A stretch of DNA of 64,000 nt from Betaproteobacteria bacterium (GCA_046341655.1 JBKDQY010000153.1:13856-77855); one strand, 5' to 3'; counted from the stretch's first letter, positions 5,874 to 64,000 are shown. The notes: generated from the letters alone by a model not told the origin. Numbers and translations: made by a program.

Positions 5874-7111
5874 ACGCACCGCGCCCCCTCCTGCCGCTGG
5901 ACGATGCCCTGCAGCGCCTTGCCGCGGCCGCCGCGGCCCACCGCATCACCGACGCGGAGACGGTCTCGACCTTCGAGGCCCGGGGCCGCGTGCTCGCGGC
6001 CGAGGTGCGCGCCACCATCGCCGTGCCGGGCGCCGACAACTCGGCGATGGACGGCTACGCCCTGTGCAGCGCCGACGTGCCTGCAGCCGGCACCGTGCTG
6101 CCGGTGTCGCAGCGCATCGCTGCCGGCCACGTGGGGCAGCCGCTTCAGGGCGGCACCGCTGCACGCATCTTCACCGGCGCGCTGGTGCCCGAGGGCGCCG
6201 ACGCGGTGGTGATGCAGGAGCAGTGCGAGGCGCTGGACGGCGGCGCTGCGGTGCGCGTGAACACCGTGCCCGGGTCGGGGCTGGCCATCCGTCGCCGCGG
6301 CGAGGACGTGGCCGAGGGCGCCGTGGTGCTGGCCGCGGGCTTGCGGCTGCAGCCGCAGGCGCTGGGCCTGGCAGCCTCGGTGGGCGTGGCGGCGCTGCCG
6401 GTGCTGCGGCGCCCGCGCGTGGCCATCCTGTGCACCGGTGACGAACTGGCCATGCCGGGCGAGCCGCTGAGGCCCGGGGCCCTGTACAACAGCAACCGCT
6501 TCACGCTGCGCGCCCTGGCCGAGGCTGCCGGATGCGTCGTCACCGACCTCGGCAACGTGCCCGACCGGCTGGACGCCACGCAAGAGGCCCTGCGCCGGGC
6601 TGCCGCGGGGCACGACCTCATCGTCACCAGCGGCGGCGTCTCGGTGGGCGAGGAAGACCACCTGAAGCCCGCCGCCGAGGCCGAGGGCCGGCTGGAGAAC
6701 TGGCAACTCGCCATCAAGCCCGGCAAGCCGCTGGCCTTCGGCGCCATCCGCCGCCCCGACGGCAGCGAGGCGCTGCTGGTGGGCCTGCCAGGCAACCCGG
6801 TGTCGTCGTTCGTCACCTGGCTGCTGGCCGTGCACGAGGTGCTGGCCGCCCTGCAGGGGCTGCCGGGCGGCCTTCCGCCGGCGCTGCCGCTGGTGGCGGG
6901 CTTCGACTGGCCGCGCCCCGACAGGCGGCGCGAGTTCCTGCGCGTGCGCGTGGGCGCCGAAGGCCGGCTGGTGCTGTTCGGGAACCAGGGCTCGGGCGTC
7001 CTGACCTCCACCGTATGGGCCGATGGGCTGGTGGACGTGCCGTCGGGCCAGGCCATCCGGGCCGGCGACACCGTGGCCTACCGGCCGCTCGCAGGCTGGC
7101 TCAACGCCTGA
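5870..7111 (+). CDS. moeA: Molybdopterin molybdenumtransferase
   Basis: NSAMDGYA, TGALVPEGADAVVMQE, VTSGGVSVGEEDH, LAIKPGKPLAFG, GLPGNPVSS. The ATG overlaps the thrC stop. Confidence 0.9.
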   Translation: MNAPRPLLPLDDALQRLAAAAAAHRITDAETVSTFEARGRVLAAEVRATIAVPGADNSAMDGYALCSADVPAAGTVLPVSQRIAAGHVGQPLQGGTAARIFTGALVPEGADAVVMQEQCEALDGGAAVRVNTVPGSGLAIRRRGEDVAEGAVVLAAGLRLQPQALGLAASVGVAALPVLRRPRVAILCTGDELAMPGEPLRPGALYNSNRFTLRALAEAAGCVVTDLGNVPDRLDATQEALRRAAAGHDLIVTSGGVSVGEEDHLKPAAEAEGRLENWQLAIKPGKPLAFGAIRRPDGSEALLVGLPGNPVSSFVTWLLAVHEVLAALQGLPGGLPPALPLVAGFDWPRPDRRREFLRVRVGAEGRLVLFGNQGSGVLTSTVWADGLVDVPSGQAIRAGDTVAYRPLAGWLNA

Positions 7112-7252
7112 GGCTGCATCTCGCCCCGGCAGGCTCCGTCCGCAAGGGTGGCCCGGTCGCCAACCCGGGCTCCGGCGCGGCGCCAGCGCCGGTGCGGGGG
7201 CGCCGCTAGCATCGAGATTCCTGGCGCGGGATTCGCGCCTGCCGAATCCCCG

Positions 7253-7507
7253 ATGCTCACCGTCCAAGTCCGCTACTTCGCCGCCCTTCGCGAGGCGCTG
7301 GGGCCGCAGGAGGCCGTATCCCTGCCTGCCGGTGCAACCGTCGGCAGCCTGCGCAGGCTGCTGGCCGCCCGCGGCGGTCGCCACGCCGAGTTGCTGGCGC
7401 CCGGCCGGGCGGTGCGCGCCGCGGTCGCGCAGGCCGTCTGCGGCGACGACACCGCGCTCGCCGAAGGCGACGAGGTGGCGTTCTTCCCACCCGTCACGGG
7501 GGGCTGA
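7253..7507 (+). CDS. moaD: Molybdopterin synthase sulfur-carrier subunit
   Basis: 84 aa. Begins MLTVQVRYFAALREALG and has the C-terminal FFPPVTGG diglycine end typical of MoaD. Confidence 0.85.
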   Translation: MLTVQVRYFAALREALGPQEAVSLPAGATVGSLRRLLAARGGRHAELLAPGRAVRAAVAQAVCGDDTALAEGDEVAFFPPVTGG

Positions 7508-7508
7508 G

Positions 7509-8009
7509 ATGGCTGCTCCCGTGCCGCGCGTGCGCATCCAGACCGCCGACTTCGACCTTGGCACCGAACTGGCGGCGCTGCGCGAGGGCGACCTCGGCGT
7601 CGGCGCCGTCGCCAGCTTCGTGGGCACGGTGCGCGAGCGCGGGCACCCTGGTGCCGGCGAGCCCGTGCGGGAACTGGAGCTCGAGCACTACCCGGGCATG
7701 ACCGAGAAGTCGATCGAGGCGATGATCGAAGCCGCCGGGCGCCGCTTCGACATCCGCGGCGCCCGCGTGGTGCACCGTGTCGGCCGGCTGCTGCCGGGCG
7801 AGCAGATCGTGCTGGTGGCGGTGAGTTCGGCGCACCGCGGGCAGGCCTTCCAGGCCTGCGAGTTCATCATGGACTACCTGAAGACCCAGGCCCCGTTCTG
7901 GAAGAAGGAAACCACCCCGTCTGGCGCCCGCTGGGTCGATGCGCGGGTGGCCGACGACGAAGCGCTGGCGCGCTGGGGTATCGAGGCGCGCAATGCAGGC
8001 GGGCGCTGA
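7509..8009 (+). CDS. moaE: Molybdopterin synthase catalytic subunit
   Basis: GAVASFVGTVRE, LEHYPGMTEKS, AVSSAHRGQAFQACEFIMDYLKTQAPFWKKE. Starts 2 nt after moaD. Confidence 0.9.
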   Translation: MAAPVPRVRIQTADFDLGTELAALREGDLGVGAVASFVGTVRERGHPGAGEPVRELELEHYPGMTEKSIEAMIEAAGRRFDIRGARVVHRVGRLLPGEQIVLVAVSSAHRGQAFQACEFIMDYLKTQAPFWKKETTPSGARWVDARVADDEALARWGIEARNAGGR

Positions 8010-8511
8010 GCCCGTGGCGCCCGACGCCGCGGCGCCGGACACGCGCCGGCTGCGCGCTGCGCTCGGCCGCTTCACCACGGGCGTGACCATCGTCACCTGC
8101 ACCGACGTCGCCGGCGAGCGCGTGGGCCTGACGGTCAACTCCTTCAGCTCCCTGTCTCTGGAGCCCCCCCTGGTGCTGTGGTCGCTGCGGCGCGAGAGTC
8201 CCTCGGCGGCTGCCTTCTCGGCCGCCAGGCACTTCGCCGTCAACGTGCTGGCCGAGTCGCAGGTGGGTGTGTCGCGCCGCTTCGCCGCGCGGCGTGCCGA
8301 TCGCTTCGCCGAGGGCGAGTGGTCCGCAGGCCTGCACGGCCTGCCGGTGCTGGCCGGCACCGCGGCGGTGTTCGAGTGCGAGAGCGTTTCGGCGCAGGAC
8401 GCCGGCGACCACCTGCTGTTCATCGGCCGCGTGCTGGCCTGCTGCGACAGCCCCGTGGCGCCGCTGCTGTTCCAGGCCGGCCACTACCGCACCATCGGGC
8501 ACCCGCTCTGA
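7993..8511 (+). CDS. Flavin reductase-like (FMN-binding split-barrel) protein
   Basis: LRAALGRFTTGVTIVTC...GLTVNSFSSLSLEPPLVLWSL...GDHLLFIGRV is the flavin-reductase domain pattern. The start is uncertain; 7993 overlaps the moaE end by 17 nt. Confidence 0.8.
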   Translation: MQAGAEPVAPDAAAPDTRRLRAALGRFTTGVTIVTCTDVAGERVGLTVNSFSSLSLEPPLVLWSLRRESPSAAAFSAARHFAVNVLAESQVGVSRRFAARRADRFAEGEWSAGLHGLPVLAGTAAVFECESVSAQDAGDHLLFIGRVLACCDSPVAPLLFQAGHYRTIGHPL

Positions 8512-8610
8512 AGCGGGCACGACCGATCGGCGACCCGTTCCAAGTGGGGATGCCGCAAAGGCCGGTTTCTTGCGATCATCGTCACCGTTGATGCTGGTGA
8601 GGAGCCGACC

Positions 8611-9363
8611 ATGTCCCGATTGACTCGCCGTCTCGTCTCGTCGACAGGCTTTGCGCTCGTCCTCGCTGCCCAGGCTGCCCAGGCACAGCAGCTGCTGGTG
8701 GACGGTTTCACCTCACCGACGGCTCCGGTGCCGAGCGTGTTCCTGGGCACCGGCGAGCGCAGCTTCAACGATTCCGCCGCCGACGTTCTGGGCGGCGTTC
8801 GCAGCGTCTATCACCACGTCTTCCGCAATCCTCTGCCCAGCGTGTCCGTCGCGGTTGCGGGCAACGGGGTGCTCAGCGTCAGCGACGGCGTGGGCGCGAC
8901 CAGCGAGCTGCTCGCGAGCTACGGGGCGTTCGCAGGGGGCGCCGACCCCGCTTGGCAGGGGCCGCACCTGAACCTGGACGCCCGCCCCTACGACAGCTTC
9001 GAGCTGGTGTTCAAGGGCGTTCAGATCGCCATGAACATCAACGTGGTGCTGTACACCGCCAACCCGCTGGACCCGGCCAACCCCCTCTACTACACGACGG
9101 TGGGCGTCAACGTGGCACCTGCCTTTCCCGGCGGCCCCGTCACCGTGACCCTGCCCTTCGCCTCGGCACCCGACTTCAACTTCGGCGACGTCGACGGGAT
9201 CTCCCTGGTGCTCAACCGGGCCATCGGGCCGCTGACCGGCAACGGGTACACCCTCGACAGCTTCTCGCTGGTGACGGCCGTGCCGGAGCCGGGCAGTGCG
9301 GTGCTGATGCTCGGCGGCGCGCTGCTGCTGGCGGCGCGCCTGCGTCGCCGCGCGGACTCCTAG
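8611..9363 (+). CDS. Secreted PEP-CTERM sorting-domain protein, otherwise unknown
   Basis: Signal peptide (...LAAQAAQAQ). The C-terminus VPEPGSAVLMLGGALLLAARLRRR has the PEP motif, a TM helix and a basic tail. SD GGTGAGGAG lies before the ATG. Confidence 0.8.
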   Translation: MSRLTRRLVSSTGFALVLAAQAAQAQQLLVDGFTSPTAPVPSVFLGTGERSFNDSAADVLGGVRSVYHHVFRNPLPSVSVAVAGNGVLSVSDGVGATSELLASYGAFAGGADPAWQGPHLNLDARPYDSFELVFKGVQIAMNINVVLYTANPLDPANPLYYTTVGVNVAPAFPGGPVTVTLPFASAPDFNFGDVDGISLVLNRAIGPLTGNGYTLDSFSLVTAVPEPGSAVLMLGGALLLAARLRRRADS

Positions 9364-9442
9364 CCCCCGGGCCCCGGCGCGGGGCTTGGTTGATCGATGT
9401 CAAAGGCGGCTCGGGCGCGTCCTCCGGTGCGCCCGCGTCGGG

Positions 9443-9470
9443 CGTGAAAGCCCGACGCCGCGCCTCACAT
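9443..9470 (+). promoter_or_regulatory. Candidate sigma-32 (RpoH) heat-shock promoter of clpB
   Basis: cGTGAAA, 13 nt, CCTCACAT compared with the E. coli consensus CTTGAAA-N13-15-CCCCATNT. It ends 25 nt upstream of the clpB ATG, with SD GGAGG in between. Confidence 0.4.
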
Positions 9471-9495
9471 CCAGCGCAGACCGGAGGTTCATCCC

Positions 9496-12087
<2,592 letters not shown>

Positions 12088-56385: not shown

Positions 56386-57117
56386 ATGACGTCCAGCGAC
56401 AAGGGCGAGGCCCTGCTCAAGGTCAGCGGCCTGAAGGTGGCCTACGGTGGCATCCAGGCCGTCAAGGGCGTGAGCTTCGAGGTTCGGCCGGGCGAGCTCG
56501 TCAGCCTCATCGGTGCCAACGGGGCCGGCAAGACCACCACGCTCAAGGCGGTGACCGGCACGCTGCCGGCGGCCGACGGCGAGATCCACTACCTGGGCAA
56601 GCCCATCCGCGGGCAGGGCGCGTGGGACCTGGTCGCCCAGGGCCTGGTGATGGTGCCCGAGGGCCGCGGCGGGTTCGCGCGCATGACCATCGTCGAGAAC
56701 CTGCAGATGGGCGCCTTCGTGCGCAACGACAAGGACGGCATCGCCGCCGACATCGAGCGCGTCTTCGGCATCTTCCCGCGGCTGAAGGAACGGGCCGCGC
56801 AGCTGGCCGGCACCATGAGCGGTGGCGAGCAGCAGATGCTGGCCATGGGCCGGGCACTGATGGCGCAGCCCAAGGTGCTGCTGCTCGATGAGCCGAGCAT
56901 GGGCCTGTCGCCGATCATGGTGGACAAGATCTTCGAGGTCGTGGCGGACATCCACGCCCGCGGCACCACGGTGCTGCTGGTCGAACAGAACGCCAGCCGC
57001 GCGCTGGGTCTGGCCGACCGCGGCTACGTCATGGAGTCGGGCGAGATCACGATGGCGGGCGAAGCCAAGGCGCTGCTCTCCGACCCCAAGGTGCGCGCGG
57101 CGTACCTGGGCGAATGA
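56386..57117 (+). CDS. livF: Branched-chain amino-acid ABC ATPase LivF
   Basis: GANGAGKTT, MSGGEQQMLAMGRAL, LLDEPSMGLSP, C-terminal VRAAYLGE. Confidence 0.92.
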   Translation: MTSSDKGEALLKVSGLKVAYGGIQAVKGVSFEVRPGELVSLIGANGAGKTTTLKAVTGTLPAADGEIHYLGKPIRGQGAWDLVAQGLVMVPEGRGGFARMTIVENLQMGAFVRNDKDGIAADIERVFGIFPRLKERAAQLAGTMSGGEQQMLAMGRALMAQPKVLLLDEPSMGLSPIMVDKIFEVVADIHARGTTVLLVEQNASRALGLADRGYVMESGEITMAGEAKALLSDPKVRAAYLGE

Positions 57118-57222
57118 CGGCAGGTCCGGCGTCGGGGGGATGGCCGGGGCCCTGCCAGCCGTCATAGAGTAGAGGGTGATGTGCTGGTCGATGTCCGACC
57201 TGCGCCTGAAGAGGATCGCACC

Positions 57223-58077
57223 ATGAACGCTCGAACCGACAGCCGCAGGCGCCGCTGGGGCGCGTCTTCCGCCTGGCCGCTGGTTGCCGTCCTGCTGATG
57301 CTGCAGGGCTGCATCGCCACGGCGCCCAAGATCGGTGGTGGCACGTCCTCAGCCGGTGGTGCGGCGGGCGGCGGGACGGCCCAGAACCAGAACAAGGATC
57401 TCGAACGCTGCAACGAGCCACTGGGCACCATGGCGATGGAGGAGGACCAGAACGCAGCCTGGTACTCCGCGATGCGCGGGTACCAGCTGGGCTCGACGCT
57501 GCCCGTGCTGCGGCTGATGATCCAGCAGAGCAACTGTTTCGTGATCGTCGAGCGCGGTAGCGGCCTCAACGACGTCATGCGCGAGCGGCAGCTGATCCGC
57601 GGCGAAGAGGGCCGCGCCGGCAGCAACATGGGAGGCGGCCAGCTGGTGGCGGCCGACTACCTGATGCGCCCGTCGGTCCAGTTCTCCGGCAATACCGGTG
57701 GCAACCGCGGGGGGTTGGCCGGCCTCTTGCCCGGTGCGCTGGGCTCCATTGCGGGCAGCGTTGGCGTCAACGAGGCCTCAACCACGTTGCTGCTCGTCGA
57801 CATTCGCTCAGGCGTGCAGATCTCGGCTGCTGAGGGCAACAGCAAGAACTACGACTTCGGCCTCTTCGGCGGTGCCTTCACCGGGGGCCTGGCCGTCGGC
57901 GCCAGCGGCTACTCCAAGACGCCGCAGGGCCGCGTGGTCACCGCGGCCTTCGCCGACTCGTTCAACCAGATGGTGCGTGCCCTGCGCAACTACAGGGCGC
58001 AGACGGTTCGTGACGGTCTGGGCACCGGCGGTCGCCTGGGAGTCCAGGGCGGGCAGACGCCCGCGAGCCCGCGCTGA
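57223..58077 (+). CDS. CsgG-family (curli-secretion-pore-like) lipoprotein
   Basis: 284 aa from ATG 57223 (SD GAAGAGGA). Lipobox LMLQG|C. LGTMAMEED..., LRLMIQQSNCFVIVERG, ERQLI, GQLVAADYLMRPSVQFSGN, TTLLLVDIRSGVQI, AFADSFNQMVRAL. Order and spacing are as in CsgG-family proteins. Confidence 0.7.
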   Translation: MNARTDSRRRRWGASSAWPLVAVLLMLQGCIATAPKIGGGTSSAGGAAGGGTAQNQNKDLERCNEPLGTMAMEEDQNAAWYSAMRGYQLGSTLPVLRLMIQQSNCFVIVERGSGLNDVMRERQLIRGEEGRAGSNMGGGQLVAADYLMRPSVQFSGNTGGNRGGLAGLLPGALGSIAGSVGVNEASTTLLLVDIRSGVQISAAEGNSKNYDFGLFGGAFTGGLAVGASGYSKTPQGRVVTAAFADSFNQMVRALRNYRAQTVRDGLGTGGRLGVQGGQTPASPR

Positions 58078-58087
58078 GGGAGCCGGG

Positions 58088-58741
58088 GTGAAGCGGGGCG
58101 TCGCGATGGTCCGGGGCCGGTCGGCGCTGCCGGGCCTGCTGGTCTTGCTGCACGGCCTGAGTGCGCCCGCGCAGGCACAGATGTACCACCTCTACCTGCA
58201 CTGCCAGGGTGAGGTGGCGGCGGGCCCGGGCGCGGCTTCGCCAGCCGCAGCCGGGCTGACCCTGCGGGCCGGGGCTTCCGGCGTCGTGTCTGGCGATCGC
58301 GACAAGGGCGACAAGGGGGACAAGAACCTCGCCGAGGACGACGAGAACCTCCAGGTCCGCGCCCGCGCGGTGCGCACCGCCGCCAAGCGTGGCAACGCCC
58401 ACCTCGAGCTGGCGCTGCGTGACAACAACATGAGCATGCTGGTGCAGCGTTCGAACCTGCTGCCCACGGGCCAACGCATGAAGTACCAGGCCACCCCGAC
58501 GCACTACACCGCGACCTTCCTGCCCCAGACGGCCGGAGCGGCGTTCCGCGAATTCGGGGAAAGCGGTCTGTTCGGCTGGTACCCGCCTTTCCAGAAGATG
58601 GCCGCGACGCGTTTCGCGATCGATCGCCGCAGCGGCCAGCTCGAAGGCGAGGTCGTCGGTCCGGCGGGCGAGGTGCTCGGCCTCGTGGACATGCAGTGCG
58701 AGGCCAAGCGCAACGAGGACGCGCCGGCGCCCCGGTTCTGA
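58088..58741 (+). CDS. Secreted hypothetical protein, no recognisable family
   Basis: GTG 58088 (SD GAGGGAG) or ATG 58106. Signal peptide ...LLVLLHGLSAPAQA|Q. DKGDKGDK low-complexity stretch. The stop overlaps the next start (TGATG). Confidence 0.55.
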   Translation: MKRGVAMVRGRSALPGLLVLLHGLSAPAQAQMYHLYLHCQGEVAAGPGAASPAAAGLTLRAGASGVVSGDRDKGDKGDKNLAEDDENLQVRARAVRTAAKRGNAHLELALRDNNMSMLVQRSNLLPTGQRMKYQATPTHYTATFLPQTAGAAFREFGESGLFGWYPPFQKMAATRFAIDRRSGQLEGEVVGPAGEVLGLVDMQCEAKRNEDAPAPRF

Positions 58742-59841
58742 TGGCGCCGCCGGCAGTGCTGTGGGTGGTGGCGGCCCTGTTGACGGGGCTGCTGACGGCT
58801 GCACCGGTCCAGGCCGCGCGGCTGGCGCTGGTGATCGGCAACGACACCTACCGTCAGGCGCCGGTGCTGCGCAACGCGCGCAACGATGCTCGCAGCATCG
58901 CCGGCGAACTCGAGGCGGCCGGCTTCCAGGTCTCGCGCGTGCTCGACGGAACCCGACGCGACATGAACGCGGCCCTCGACGGTTTCGTGCGCCGGATCGG
59001 CAAGGGCGACGAGGTGGTCTTCTACTTCTCGGGTCACGGCTCGCAGCCGCCGCAGACGGGGCCTTTCCTGCTGCCGGTGGACATCGAGATCAGCAGCGAG
59101 CGCTCGATCCTGCGCGACGGCGTTTCCCTCGAGCAGGTCGTCGACGACCTCGCGCAGCGGGCGCGTTTCGCGCTGGTGATCGTCGATGCCTGCCGCGACG
59201 ACCCCTTCCGCCAGACCTCCGCGGGCCGCTCGCTCGCCCCGGGCTCGAGCCTGTCGCGCATCGAGCCGCCCAAGGGCACGATGATCATCATGGCCGCATC
59301 CAAGGGCCAGCAGGCGCTGGACCGGCTGAGCGACAACGACCCCGTGGCCAACGGGCTGTTCACCCGCGAGCTGGTCAAGCAGATGCGCGAGCCCGGGCTG
59401 TCGGCGGGCGAGATGCTCAAGCGGGTGCGGGCCAACGTCGAGCGCGCCGCGCAGTCGGTCAACCACGCCCAGCGGCCGTCGCTGGTGGACGAGTCCTCGA
59501 GCGACTTCTTCTTCCACCCCGGGCGGCCGGGCACGCCGACCGCGATGCCGCCAGCGGCCGCCGCGGCCGAAGCCGTGCCGCCAAGGCCGCAGCCGGTGGC
59601 CGCCGCCTATGTGCCGCAGCGCGAGTTCGAGGCCTGGGAGCAGGCGACCATGGCCGCCACCAAGGCCGCCTACGAGGGCTACCTGAGCCGCTTCCCGAGC
59701 GGCCGTTACGCGGCGCACGCGCGAACGCGCCTCGCGCTGCTCGGGGGTGCGCAGCCCTTGCCGCTGCCCGAACCGACGCAACGCCCCAGCGGTCGCGAGA
59801 CCCACAGCACGCCACCCGCTTCGCCGAGACCTGCATCGTGA
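58741..59841 (+). CDS. Periplasmic caspase-family (peptidase C14) protease
   Basis: 366 aa. Signal peptide ...LLTAAPVQA|A. ALVIGNDTY, His motif VVFYFSGHG, Cys motif ALVIVDACRDDPF. C-terminal W..A......Y..YL..FP.G.Y module. Confidence 0.85.
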   Translation: MAPPAVLWVVAALLTGLLTAAPVQAARLALVIGNDTYRQAPVLRNARNDARSIAGELEAAGFQVSRVLDGTRRDMNAALDGFVRRIGKGDEVVFYFSGHGSQPPQTGPFLLPVDIEISSERSILRDGVSLEQVVDDLAQRARFALVIVDACRDDPFRQTSAGRSLAPGSSLSRIEPPKGTMIIMAASKGQQALDRLSDNDPVANGLFTRELVKQMREPGLSAGEMLKRVRANVERAAQSVNHAQRPSLVDESSSDFFFHPGRPGTPTAMPPAAAAAEAVPPRPQPVAAAYVPQREFEAWEQATMAATKAAYEGYLSRFPSGRYAAHARTRLALLGGAQPLPLPEPTQRPSGRETHSTPPASPRPAS

Positions 59842-60317
59842 CCCGCACCCCAGCCCTGCGTTCCGCGCTCGCCACGTCGCTTCTGGCCCTGACCGCCAGC
59901 GCCTTCGCGCAGGACTACACGCAGCGGCAACTGCAGGACATCGTCAGCCGCCATCTGGCCGCCGAATCGCTGCGGCCCGAGCTCACGAGCGCCGGCAACG
60001 TGCGATTCCGCAGCCAGGGTCGGACCTACGTCGTCCACATCGACGAGCGCGACCCGCTGTACTTCCGCCTGACCATGGCCTTCGTTTCCGAGGACAAGAG
60101 CGCCGCGGGGCGGCAGCGGCAGCTCGAGGGCTGCAACAGCGCGACCTCCGAAGTCAAGGTCGTCAAGTGCTTCCTCGACGAGGACGGCGACCCGACCTTC
60201 GCGGCCGAGGTGTTCCTCGTCGTGCCCGGTGACTTCACGCTGTTCTTCGACCGCACGCTGCGTGCGATGGACAGCGCCTGGCGCCGCTACACGCGCCGGC
60301 TCGGCGAGTTGCGCTGA
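59838..60317 (+). CDS. Secreted small protein with a YbjN-like (T3SS-chaperone-like fold) pattern
   Basis: 159 aa. GTG 59838 overlaps the caspase stop (GTGA). Signal peptide ...LALTASAFA|[31 protein letters not shown]...[20 protein letters not shown] resembles the YbjN family. This is a pattern-level call only. Confidence 0.5.
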
Positions 60318-60385
60318 GGGCAGACCCGGCCGGCGTCGCGGGCGATACTCCGTCCTTCCCGACCGAGGCCGCCGCGCCGCCGCCG

Positions 60386-61192
60386 ATGCTCCAGCATCCC
60401 CAGTTCGACCCTGTCGCCATCGCCATCGGCCCGCTGGCCGTGCACTGGTACGGCCTGACGTACCTCGTGGCCTTCGGCCTGTTCTGGTGGCTGGGCACGC
60501 GCCGCGTGGCGCTGCCGCACTTCGCCTCGCGCGGCTGGAGCCGACGCGACGTCGAAGACCTGCTGTTCTGGGGCGTGATCGGCGTCGTGGTCGGCGGCCG
60601 CGTGGGCTATGCGCTTTTCTACAAGCCCGGCCAGTACCTGGCCAACCCGCTGGAGATCGCGATGCTCTGGAAGGGCGGCATGAGCTTCCACGGCGGCCTG
60701 CTGGGCGTCATCGCCGCGATGGCCCTGTGGGCCCGCAGCCGCGGCCGCCCGTTCCCGGAGGTCATGGACGTGGTGGCGCCCTGCGTGCCCACGGGCCTGG
60801 CCTCGGGCCGCATCGGCAACTTCATCAACGGCGAGCTCTGGGGCCGCGCGGCCGACCCCGCGCTGCCCTGGGCGATGGTGTTCCCGCAGAGCGGCAGCGC
60901 GCTGCCGCGGCACCCTTCGCAGCTCTACCAGTTCCTGCTCGAGGGCTTGGTGCTGTTCGCGCTGCTGTGGTGGTACGGCCGGCGCGAGCGGGCGCGCGGG
61001 CAGGTGGCGTCGGCCTTCCTGGTGGGCTATGGCGTGCTGCGCTTCGTGGCCGAGTTTTTCCGCGAGCCCGACAGCTTCCTGGGCGTGCTGGCGCTGGGGC
61101 TGAGCATGGGCCAGTGGCTGTGCCTGCCGATGATTGCCGCCGGCGCAGGGCTGTGGCTGTGGTTCGGCCGCCAGGCCGCCGCGGCCCGCTAG
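60386..61192 (+). CDS. lgt: Prolipoprotein diacylglyceryl transferase
   Basis: 268 aa. [53 protein letters not shown]. Confidence 0.93.
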
Positions 61193-61972: not shown

Positions 61973-62047
61973 GGGCGGTTAGCTCAGCGGTAGAGCACTG
62001 CCTTCACACGGCAGGGGTCGCAGGTTCGAACCCTGCACCGCCCACCA
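61973..62047 (+). tRNA. tRNA-Val (anticodon CAC)
   Basis: Manual cloverleaf: acceptor GGGCGGT/ACCGCCC, D-arm GCTCAGCGGTAGAGC, anticodon loop TTCACAC, T-arm GGTTCGAACCC, encoded CCA. Confidence 0.9.
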
Positions 62048-62215: not shown

Positions 62216-63241
62216 ATGTCCCACGCGTTTCCCTTCAGCGCCATCGTCGGCCAGGACGAGATGAAGCTCGCCATCCTCGTCGCCGCGGTGGATCCGAGCG
62301 TCGGCGGCGTGCTGATCTTCGGCGATCGCGGCACCGGCAAGAGCACCGCGGTTCGTGCGCTGGCCGCGCTGCTGCCGAAGATGAAGGCCGTGGTCGGCTG
62401 CCGCTACGGCTGCGACCCCGCCCGGCCGTTCTGCAGCAAGGCCGAGCCCTGCGCCGGCCGCGCCGGCGGCAAGAGCGCGCTCGTGGGCGTGCCCGTGGTC
62501 GACCTGCCGCTGGGCGCCACCGAAGACCGCGTCGTCGGCGCGCTCGACATCGAGCGCGCCCTCACCGAGGGCAGCAAGCACTTCGAGCCGGGGCTGCTGG
62601 CGCGCGCGCACCGCGGCTTCCTGTACATCGACGAGGTCAACCTGCTGGAGGACCACCTCGTCGACCTGCTCATCGACGTGGCCGCCTCGGGCGAGAACGT
62701 CGTCGAGCGCGAGGGCCTGTCGGTGCGCCACCCCGCGCGCTTCGTGCTGGTGGGCAGCGGCAACCCCGAGGAGGGCGAGCTGCGCCCGCAGCTGCTCGAC
62801 CGCTTCGGCCTGGCGGTCGACGTGCGTACGCCGCAGGACCTGGCCACGCGCATTGAGGTCATCAAGCGCCGCGATGCCTTCGAACGCGATGCCGAGGCCT
62901 TCGCGGCGCGCTGGAAGAAGGACGAGGACGCAACCCGCCGCAGGCTGGTGCGGTCGCGGCAGCGCCTGCCCGAGGTGCAGCTGGGTGACGAGGCACTGTC
63001 GCGCATCGCCAACCTCTGCATGGGCCTGGGCACCGACGGCCTGCGCGGCGAACTCACGCTGATGCGCGCCGCGCGCGCCTACGCCGCGCTGCAGGGCGAC
63101 GCGGCCGTGGCCGACGCGCACATCCGCACCGTCGCCCGCCCGGCCCTGCGCCACCGCCTGCGCCGCGACCCGCTGGACGACACCGACGCCGGCGTGCGCG
63201 TGGAGCGCGTGCTGGCCGAGGTGTTCGGCACGGCCGCCTGA
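62216..63241 (+). CDS. bchI: Magnesium chelatase ATPase subunit I
   Basis: FPFSAIVGQDEMKLAILVAAVDPSVGGVLIFGDRGTGKST, FLYIDEVNLLEDHLVD, RFVLVGSGNPEEGELRPQLLDRFG. Confidence 0.93.
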   Translation: MSHAFPFSAIVGQDEMKLAILVAAVDPSVGGVLIFGDRGTGKSTAVRALAALLPKMKAVVGCRYGCDPARPFCSKAEPCAGRAGGKSALVGVPVVDLPLGATEDRVVGALDIERALTEGSKHFEPGLLARAHRGFLYIDEVNLLEDHLVDLLIDVAASGENVVEREGLSVRHPARFVLVGSGNPEEGELRPQLLDRFGLAVDVRTPQDLATRIEVIKRRDAFERDAEAFAARWKKDEDATRRRLVRSRQRLPEVQLGDEALSRIANLCMGLGTDGLRGELTLMRAARAYAALQGDAAVADAHIRTVARPALRHRLRRDPLDDTDAGVRVERVLAEVFGTAA

Positions 63242-63265
63242 GCGGCGCAGCCCGCGGCGCCCGCC

Positions 63266-64000
63266 ATGGCCGACGACCGCGAGAGCGCCCGCCAGGCGCT
63301 GGCCCTGGCGGCAGCCCTGCTGGCCGTCGATCCGGCGGGCCTGGGGGGCGCGCGCCTGATGGGCCCGGCCGGCCCCGTGCGCGACGCCTGGCTCGAGACC
63401 CTGCGCCGGCTGCTCCCCGCGAACACGCCCTGGCGCCGCCTGCCCCAGCATGCCCAGCAGGAGCGCCTGTCCGGCGGCCTCGACCTGCAGGCCACGCTGG
63501 CCGCCGGCCGGCCCGTGCTGCAGCAGGGGCTGCTGGCCGCGGCCGATGGCGGCGTGGTGGTGGCGGCCATGGCCGAACGGCTGGCCCCCGGCACCGCCGC
63601 GCAGGTGGCGGCGGCGCTGGACCACGGCCGCGTGCGCATCGAGCGCGACGGCCTCAGCGACGTGGCGCCGGCGCGCTTCGCGCTCGTCGCGCTCGACGAG
63701 GCCGAGGGTGACGACAGCCCGCTGGCGCCCGCGCTGGCCGACCGCCTGTCACTGTGGCTGCCGCTGCGCGGCCTGGGCTGGCGCAGCGCGCCGCAGCCGG
63801 CCGAGGTGGCCGACTGGGCCGCCGCGGTGGCCGAGGCGCGCGAGCGGCTGCCGCGCGTGCAGGTGCCCGACGAGCTGGTGGCTGCGCTGGCTGCCGCCAC
63901 GCTGGCCCTGGGCGTGGACTCGCCCCGCGCGGCTTGGGCCGCGGTGCGGCTGGCCCGCGCATCGGCAGCACTGTTCGGGCGTGACCTTGCCACCGCCGAC
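63266..64000 (+). CDS. bchD: Magnesium chelatase subunit D (5' part; continues past the window end)
   Basis: My own translation from ATG 63266: MADDRESARQALALAAALLAVDPAGLGG.RL.GPAGPVRDAWL..., GGLDLQATLAAGRPV.QQGLLAAADGGVV. This is the degenerate AAA N-domain typical of BchD, directly after bchI. Confidence 0.85.
   Translation, partial: MADDRESARQALALAAALLAVDPAGLGGARLMGPAGPVRDAWLETLRRLLPANTPWRRLPQHAQQERLSGGLDLQATLAAGRPVLQQGLLAAADGGVVVAAMAERLAPGTAAQVAAALDHGRVRIERDGLSDVAPARFALVALDEAEGDDSPLAPALADRLSLWLPLRGLGWRSAPQPAEVADWAAAVAEARERLPRVQVPDELVAALAAATLALGVDSPRAAWAAVRLARASAALFGRDLATAD

Follow-up and report, generated by a model that had tools for sequence, protein, structure and literature searches.

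Genes for a protease are known to be paired with the gene of a cognate inhibitor or chaperone, as in staphopain-staphostatin and AprA-AprI. In the curli (type VIII) system, the constriction loop of CsgG carries stacked Tyr, Asn and Phe residues (PMC4594475), and in Caulobacter the CsgG homologue HfaB is required for the outer-membrane targeting of HfaA and HfaD (PMC6707917). Exported bacterial caspase homologues are not new as a class: a publication of 2012 (PMC3501461) pointed out extracellular domains in them, and N-terminal helices that are likely signal peptides. Here we describe a cluster of four genes in which a CsgG-family lipoprotein stands beside a probably exported caspase-fold protease, at positions 57223 to 60317 of a stretch of 64,000 nucleotides from a Betaproteobacteria bacterium (GCA_046341655.1, JBKDQY010000153.1:13856-77855). 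We call this whole stretch the window, and all positions are counted from its first letter. No characterised counterpart was known to the authors of an earlier reading of the window (the initial annotation), and we found none either: the literature searched holds no account of a CsgG-caspase pairing, of an exported YbjN-fold protein or of a caspase-YbjN pairing.

The initial annotation took the four genes for one operon coupling a pore to a protease. We read them instead, with fair though by no means full confidence, as a composite operon of two autonomous two-gene modules, A (genes 1 and 2) and B (genes 3 and 4), laid out as follows. Arrows inside sequences mark the predicted cleavage point; pLDDT is the predicted local distance difference test score of the AlphaFold2 (AF2) models.

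57223-58077, plus strand: gene 1, CsgG/HfaB-family lipoprotein of 284 residues, module A (Pfam PF03783)
57295-57312, plus strand: lipobox LMLQG↓C of gene 1, with Cys30 (from the translation)
58088-58741, plus strand: gene 2, orphan protein, predicted to be exported and beta-rich, constant partner of gene 1, module A
58223-58390, plus strand: low-complexity insert of the long form of gene 2, residues ~40-95 in the numbering of the 211-residue product (from alignments and pLDDT)
58741-59841, plus strand: gene 3, caspase-fold, paracaspase-like C14 cysteine protease of 366 residues, probably Sec-exported, module B (Pfam Peptidase_C14)
59035-59193, plus strand: catalytic-dyad stretch of gene 3, from the His99 codon (59035-59037) to the Cys151 codon (59191-59193) (from sequence and conservation)
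59608-59739, plus strand: helical hairpin motif (EFEAWEQA...YEGYLSRFPSGRYAAHARTRLALL) in the C-terminal part of gene 3, preceded by a Pro/Ala-rich linker (from conservation)
59838-60317, plus strand: gene 4, protein of 159 residues with a predicted YbjN / type III secretion class I chaperone fold, probably Sec-exported, module B (AF2, Foldseek)

The division into two modules comes from the neighbourhoods of these genes in other genomes. Module A was surveyed in one genome per GTDB species with the gene 2 alignment as query, the neighbours being identified by local phmmer, and 47 loci were obtained. Each of the 47 has gene 1 immediately upstream of gene 2. Genes 3 and 4 adjoin this pair in eight of the 47 loci, six times in tandem (L008-L013) and twice convergently (L014, L015). 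The 39 other loci, about 35 of which have adequate downstream sequence, show no nearby protease pair in their flanking sequence, and the protease-less genes 1-2 sit in several different chromosomal contexts, in genomes of Rubrivivax, Aquabacterium, Sphaerotilus, Ideonella and Caldimonas and in a Thiobacillus metagenome-assembled genome (MAG). Gene 3, for its part, is found directly upstream of gene 4 in all of the 19 testable metagenome loci as well as in L056-L059 and L098-L100, and at least three other contexts have this pair but not genes 1-2. In the stand-alone context it lies between unrelated genes. In the recurrent OmpA context, an OmpA-type gene for a Sec-exported binder of peptidoglycan, sharing 4 nucleotides with gene 3, is followed by gene 3, gene 4, sometimes a gene for 248 residues, and then a convergent serpin gene and a caspase-DUF4384 gene. 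The initial annotation would have the four genes occur together in related genomes; this expectation largely failed, genes 1-2 being found mostly without genes 3-4, and genes 3-4 also on their own.

The convergent pair of a Peptidase_C14+DUF4384 gene and a serpin gene near OmpA clusters was located at 8048-10809 (minus strand) in L056, at 6555-9424 (minus strand) in L058 and in L073-L083, and is often accompanied by a gene for a 230-residue protein that we could not name. To all appearance, an exported caspase homologue is paired here with a partner of the serpin type.

At the site of the window itself, the downstream synteny is common to L002, which has genes 3-4, and to L055, which lacks them, while the upstream liv genes are common to the window and L055. 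What varies at this site is therefore genes 3-4. We also built a neighbor-joining tree of the protease domain (without bootstrap). The OmpA-linked proteases are basal in this tree and the CsgG-linked forms make up one derived clade, inside which the convergent and stand-alone proteases (including L098, which is alone) are nested. A single derived clade points to a single juxtaposition of pore and protease genes, followed by vertical descent with few rearrangements. Hence, the simplest reading of the CsgG-caspase adjacency is that of a one-off juxtaposition in one freshwater betaproteobacterial lineage, apparently inverted later in some genomes. As both pairs travel independently and the linked proteases form one derived clade, a dedicated CsgG-caspase system is not supported. 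Of the pore-protease operon first proposed, the operon-like packing, the protein families and the likely export stand, and the interpretation as a whole has partial support.

The assignments made for the single products fared better. The profile searches place gene 1 in CsgG, above the Pfam cut-off, and gene 3 in Peptidase_C14, gene 4 taken alone staying under the cut-off of YbjN; the fold searches bring gene 4 to known chaperones and leave gene 2 without a significant match, in agreement with the initial annotation, which recognised no family for gene 2.

Gene 1, first described as a lipoprotein with a CsgG-type set of motifs, matches Pfam CsgG (PF03783) with an expectation value (E) of 1e-8 and 35.2 bits, the cut-off being 20.8. 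The match runs from residue 99 to residue 255, on positions 47-202 of the 210 of the profile, and covers the hairpin region. Its relatives (3425 matches) bear the NCBI name CsgG/HfaB family, and PF03783 is present in 120 of 120 relatives among the matches listed. In 30 homologues, C63 and C105 are invariant and the lipobox residue Cys30 is kept in at least 90%; hhalign aligns it with the lipobox of CsgG. These data support the membership of gene 1 in the CsgG family. Two homologues, L033 (5013-5951) and L035 (4897-5814), have no lipobox Cys but apparently a plain signal peptide; perhaps they are members of a lipoprotein family that are not lipidated. At the C-terminus (residues ~262-280), outside the Pfam match, the motif GGLGTGGRLGVQGG-T is nearly invariant in the 30 homologues, which are 52-77% identical to the protein of the window, and in other species a Lys/Pro/Ala-rich tail often follows it.

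Compared with curli, gene 1 is, like CsgG, a lipidated PF03783 protein encoded beside a small exported partner (~130-190 mature residues), and it has Gly-rich segments at both positions of the transmembrane hairpins of CsgG. These are two insertions flanked by aromatic residues (residues ~157-185 and ~208-234), at the sites of the transmembrane segments TM1 and TM2; in an hmmsearch with the gene 1 family profile, the first of them falls on the TM1 position. The putative hairpins are rich in Gly and Ala, with an imperfect hydrophobic alternation. When aligned with E. coli CsgG by hhalign, gene 1 matched over residues 21-130, from the lipobox to helix 1, with a probability of 58%. Searches of the PDB sequences with gene 1 and with its family profile gave no match and a global hhalign of the family against E. 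coli CsgG gave no alignment, so that the relationship rests on local alignments. In a low-confidence hhalign mapping of the constriction loop, the sequence MRGYQLG of gene 1 stands opposite YPASNF of CsgG, with Gln-Leu in the place of Asn-Phe; the constriction residues of CsgG (Tyr, Asn, Phe) are not recognisably conserved. The locus also differs from curli in having no homologue of CsgA, CsgB, CsgE or CsgF: gene 2 is the sole companion of gene 1 in the 47 loci, shows no repeat or amyloid-type sequence and has no detectable similarity to these four proteins. The holdfast anchor HfaB, a non-curli lipoprotein of the CsgG family with adjacent small secreted dependants, offers the best functional analogy for genes 1-2, although gene 2 is unrelated to HfaA and HfaD, there is no holdfast polysaccharide locus here and the lineages differ at the phylum level.

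Gene 2 found no match in Pfam (CsgE, CsgF and the curlin repeats included), NCBIfam or PADLOC, and none among the PDB sequences. Its AF2 model is beta-rich (mean pLDDT 73.5); the core is confident and the insert of low confidence. The best match of its fold in the PDB has an E of 0.04, which is not significant. A weak resemblance to small beta-barrels (TbpB, NHBA, lipocalin-like) at that value was not retained as a classification. Searched exhaustively with HMMER, 1.84 billion representatives gave only 36 clusters at 50% identity, a word-based search having recovered close relatives only. With its invariant C33 and C198, gene 2 would be a lineage-restricted, disulfide-containing, exported protein. 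An open reading frame of ~162 residues behind gene 1 in Aquabacterium was considered as a homologue of gene 4 and rejected (BLASTP E 0.1); it is a short form of gene 2 (37% identity, E 2e-30 and 3e-32). This short form (~162 residues; Aquabacterium, Sphaerotilus and others) lacks the insert of ~55 residues which the long form carries. The insert has a low-confidence N-terminal part (pLDDT 44-56 over residues ~41-80) and a C-terminal part predicted as a basic helix (residues 80-90). It ends with a conserved basic sequence, RxRAVRSAAKRG, in protease-linked loci and with RAV-PVIKSDG instead in the protease-less long forms, a difference of basic motif which is confounded by phylogeny. We tried the insert as a substrate loop whose presence would follow that of the protease; a clean correlation of this kind was rejected, as the long form also occurs without genes 3-4 (L016-L026, L054, L055).

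Gene 3 matches Pfam Peptidase_C14 with an E of 7.7e-34 over residues 27-253. Both catalytic motifs given in the initial annotation are present, FYFSGHG with His99 and VDACRDDPF with Cys151, and neither these two residues nor Asp49 vary among 26 orthologues; judged by its residues, the active site is intact. The nearest solved relative is the paracaspase domain of MALT1 (E 1e-8), an Asp of which aligns with Asp49 in the NDA motif of gene 3. Because of this conserved Asp49 and of the resemblance to MALT1, gene 3 probably cleaves after Arg or Lys. With the paracaspase, metacaspase and orthocaspase branch of C14, it shares the fold, the His-Cys dyad and the acidic Asp49. It differs from that branch by its likely Sec export, by the absence of death, immunoglobulin or nucleoside triphosphatase (NTPase) domains, by its Pro/Ala linker and helical hairpin, and by the gene for a predicted exported YbjN-fold protein that always comes after it. 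The C-terminal hairpin motif is conserved and is doubled in the orthologue of L056; a comparison of this motif with tetratricopeptide repeats of the YfiO/BamD type was not significant (E 0.18). Gene 3 of the window and an orthologue from the OmpA context share 54% identity over 334 residues, C-terminal motif included.

Gene 4 reaches an E of 0.002 and 18.8 bits with Pfam YbjN, below the cut-off of 22, and 48 of its 53 relatives match this profile, the best at 1.8e-7. Its AF2 model has a pLDDT of 89.5 and the order alpha-beta-beta-beta-alpha-beta-beta-alpha. In Foldseek searches, ExsC, SycT, VecA, SicP and YbjN (6vu7) all come with a probability of 1.0, ExsC (3kxy) having an E of 4e-4 and a template modelling (TM) score of 0.60-0.70. 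The model thus agrees with the fold of YbjN and of the class I chaperones of type III secretion systems (T3SS) that was first suggested for gene 4, with TM scores of 0.5-0.7 over these proteins. The known members of this group are cytoplasmic, whereas gene 4 has a signal peptide of the cleavable type and no T3SS nearby; a role as cytoplasmic chaperone of T3SS effectors is not borne out, given the signal-peptide-type N-terminus and the absence of T3SS genes from the loci examined. As in the pairs of protease and inhibitor mentioned above, the gene of a probably exported protease (gene 3) has a small partner right behind it in one operon, often with translational coupling, but the fold predicted for gene 4 is not a known fold of protease inhibitors. 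Distant relatives of gene 4 (26-29% identity) form tandem arrays, at 3307-7951 in L086 and likewise in L087-L095, made of six to eight paralogous YbjN-like genes for 172 residues with a period of ~757 base pairs. One array member that we translated has no signal peptide, and the array proteins are probably cytoplasmic, in an unrelated organism.

The export of genes 2-4 was judged from the way in which their N-termini are conserved across orthologues. In gene 3 (26 orthologues) and gene 4 (33 orthologues), the first 20-30 residues are variable and always hydrophobic, and they end with a conserved A-x-A motif of the cleavage type; the mature start, also conserved, follows at once and reads AA↓RLALV(I/V)GND in gene 3 and A↓Q(D/T)Y..QQLQ in gene 4, where the AxA↓Q site is conserved in the 33 orthologues. 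The N-terminus of gene 2 has the same pattern (AQA↓QM(Y/F)HLYL). From these variable hydrophobic N-termini, the A-x-A motifs and the invariant Cys pairs of genes 1 and 2, we accept that all four products are likely to leave the cytoplasm, as had been claimed. The claim that the cluster is distinct from the cytoplasmic caspase-like systems also holds, gene 3 having an export-type N-terminus and no gasdermin, NTPase or sensor gene as neighbour.

The arrangement of the four genes on one strand, with the gaps, overlaps and flanks first given for it, could be verified in the sequence. Two starts are available for gene 2, which ends at 58741: the GTG at 58088 (217 residues), 10 nucleotides behind gene 1 and retained in the NCBI annotation of an identical contig, and the ATG at 58106 (211 residues), 28 nucleotides behind it. 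Gene 2 and gene 3 overlap by 1 nucleotide in the TGATG at 58739-58743, made of the ATG of gene 3 and the stop codon of gene 2; gene 3 and gene 4 overlap by 4 nucleotides in the GTGA at 59838-59841, made of the GTG of gene 4 and the TGA of gene 3. The same four genes are called on the identical contig, which comes from the betaproteobacterial MAG GCA_041442895.1, and the gene calls of L001, L002 and L004 show the same close packing (gaps or overlaps of at most 13 nucleotides). The guanine-plus-cytosine (GC) content is uniform across the cluster, at ~0.70, and the composition is native. Scans of 56900-60600 for promoters and terminators, Rfam families and repeats gave no mark of a mobile element or regulatory RNA, and within the four-gene cluster there is no repeat, no Rfam match and no terminator on the coding strand. 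Very probably, the four genes of the window form one transcript.

In the composite operon that we favour, and by analogy with CsgG and its partners CsgE, CsgF and CsgA and with HfaB and its partners HfaA and HfaD, gene 1 would be an outer-membrane-anchored oligomer that serves to export, dock or display gene 2. Gene 3 would be a periplasmic protease, probably specific for Arg or Lys, and gene 4 its cognate periplasmic partner, either a holder or an inhibitor. A regulatory role of gene 4 is suggested by the strict gene order, the translational coupling and a fold that clamps extended peptides; the Pro/Ala linker and the tail of gene 3 could be the extended segment so clamped. The serpin beside a second exported caspase homologue in the sister loci also suggests an arrangement of protease and inhibitor. 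Module B would have come to lie directly behind module A in one subclade of Burkholderiales resembling Rubrivivax, Leptothrix and Inhella, and there the two modules would be co-transcribed and translationally coupled. Each module is conserved by itself, and within the subclade A and B meet at a tight, conserved junction.

Several points weigh against this picture. The counts of genes 3-4 given above refer to the vicinity of genes 1-2 only; the similarity of gene 1 to E. coli CsgG is weak, which leaves its pore nature putative; and the proposed regulatory role of gene 4 comes from its modelled fold and the gene order. The modules stay neighbours after inversion (L014/L015, L072, L084), and the basal protease is also translationally coupled to an envelope-associated peptidoglycan binder of the OmpA type, so that the protease might conceivably require a partner in the envelope; both facts fit a functional link. 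They would suit one integrated envelope machine, in which gene 4 is the chaperone of the protease and the protease matures or releases a cargo (gene 2, for example) at the CsgG-like pore. So would the overlapping or nearly abutting stop and start codons, which are kept in at least 15 loci, and the basic run with which the insert of gene 2 ends in protease-linked loci, which would suit a protease specific for Arg or Lys. However, about four fifths of the genomes have no genes 3-4 near genes 1-2, genes 3-4 also exist without genes 1-2, the linkage arose once according to the protease tree, the basic-rich long form of gene 2 occurs without the protease as well, and the pair of L098 stands alone despite belonging to the CsgG-linked clade. 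We regard such a machine as doubtful, if worth keeping in mind. A direct link between the protease and the basic helix of the insert is possible and not favoured, again because the long form exists without the protease. Were the protease pair recruited into a CsgG-type operon so as to clip this insert in the periplasm or at the channel, the result would be a proteolytically gated step of the type VIII kind, which seems to us quite improbable. The Fap amyloid system, with its outer-membrane pore FapF and its putative cysteine protease FapD, is a loose analogy to it.

The weak similarity of gene 1 to true CsgG can also be taken to mean that there is no secretion at all, gene 1 being a periplasm-facing scaffold with a fold of the TolB-N/LpoB/CsgG type, possibly associated with peptidoglycan, and gene 2 its periplasmic ligand. 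The name "peptidoglycan-binding protein" borne by close homologues of gene 1 in several databases, the Gly/Ala-rich hairpins with their imperfect alternation and the lipobox Cys missing in two homologues agree with such a scaffold, but the Pfam CsgG match exceeds its curated cut-off and covers the hairpin region, and the aromatic-flanked Gly-rich insertions lie at the TM1 and TM2 sites; on balance we find the scaffold unlikely. As to genes 3-4, gene 3 matches the PADLOC model "caspase" (E 3.6e-12) and, at 55 bits, lies far under the cut-off of 140 of the NCBIfam EACC1-type caspase, which could hint at a defence module acting by abortive infection or programmed cell death, like the cytoplasmic caspase-like effectors. 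These database matches reflect the shared protease fold only. The N-termini of genes 3 and 4 are of the signal-peptide type in all orthologues, none of the contexts examined has a defence gene (NTPase, sensor, gasdermin or other) next to the pair, the neighbours are housekeeping or envelope genes (CsgG-, OmpA- and YbjN-like) and the composition is native, so that a defence role appears most improbable.

Around the four genes, the window has the following neighbours, which are outside the system.

56386-57117, plus strand: upstream flank, livF-type ATP-binding cassette ATPase (annotation)
60386-61192, plus strand: downstream flank, lgt, for prolipoprotein diacylglyceryl transferase (the identical contig has a Pfam LGT match here)

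The lgt gene is not kept beside the cluster elsewhere, and the downstream genes differ in other loci. Further downstream in the window, a tRNA-Val (anticodon CAC) at 61973-62047 comes after a gene for a dnaQ-like exonuclease and before a gene resembling Mg-chelatase/AAA ATPases, and the GC content rises to 0.81 in the region 63200-63800, for ~0.70 around it.

The value of the locus is limited by its narrow range, in uncultured or little-studied freshwater Burkholderiales, and by the apparently one-off coupling between pore and caspase. Very little is known, on the other hand, about the roles of exported bacterial caspase homologues or about the cargo of non-curli lipoproteins of the CsgG family, and the locus offers two small, cleanly bounded and experimentally tractable gene pairs for both. 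If gene 4 does regulate gene 3, this would be a new regulatory pairing for caspase-fold proteases, and if gene 4 is a dedicated periplasmic regulator, the fold of the T3SS chaperones would have a new cellular location.

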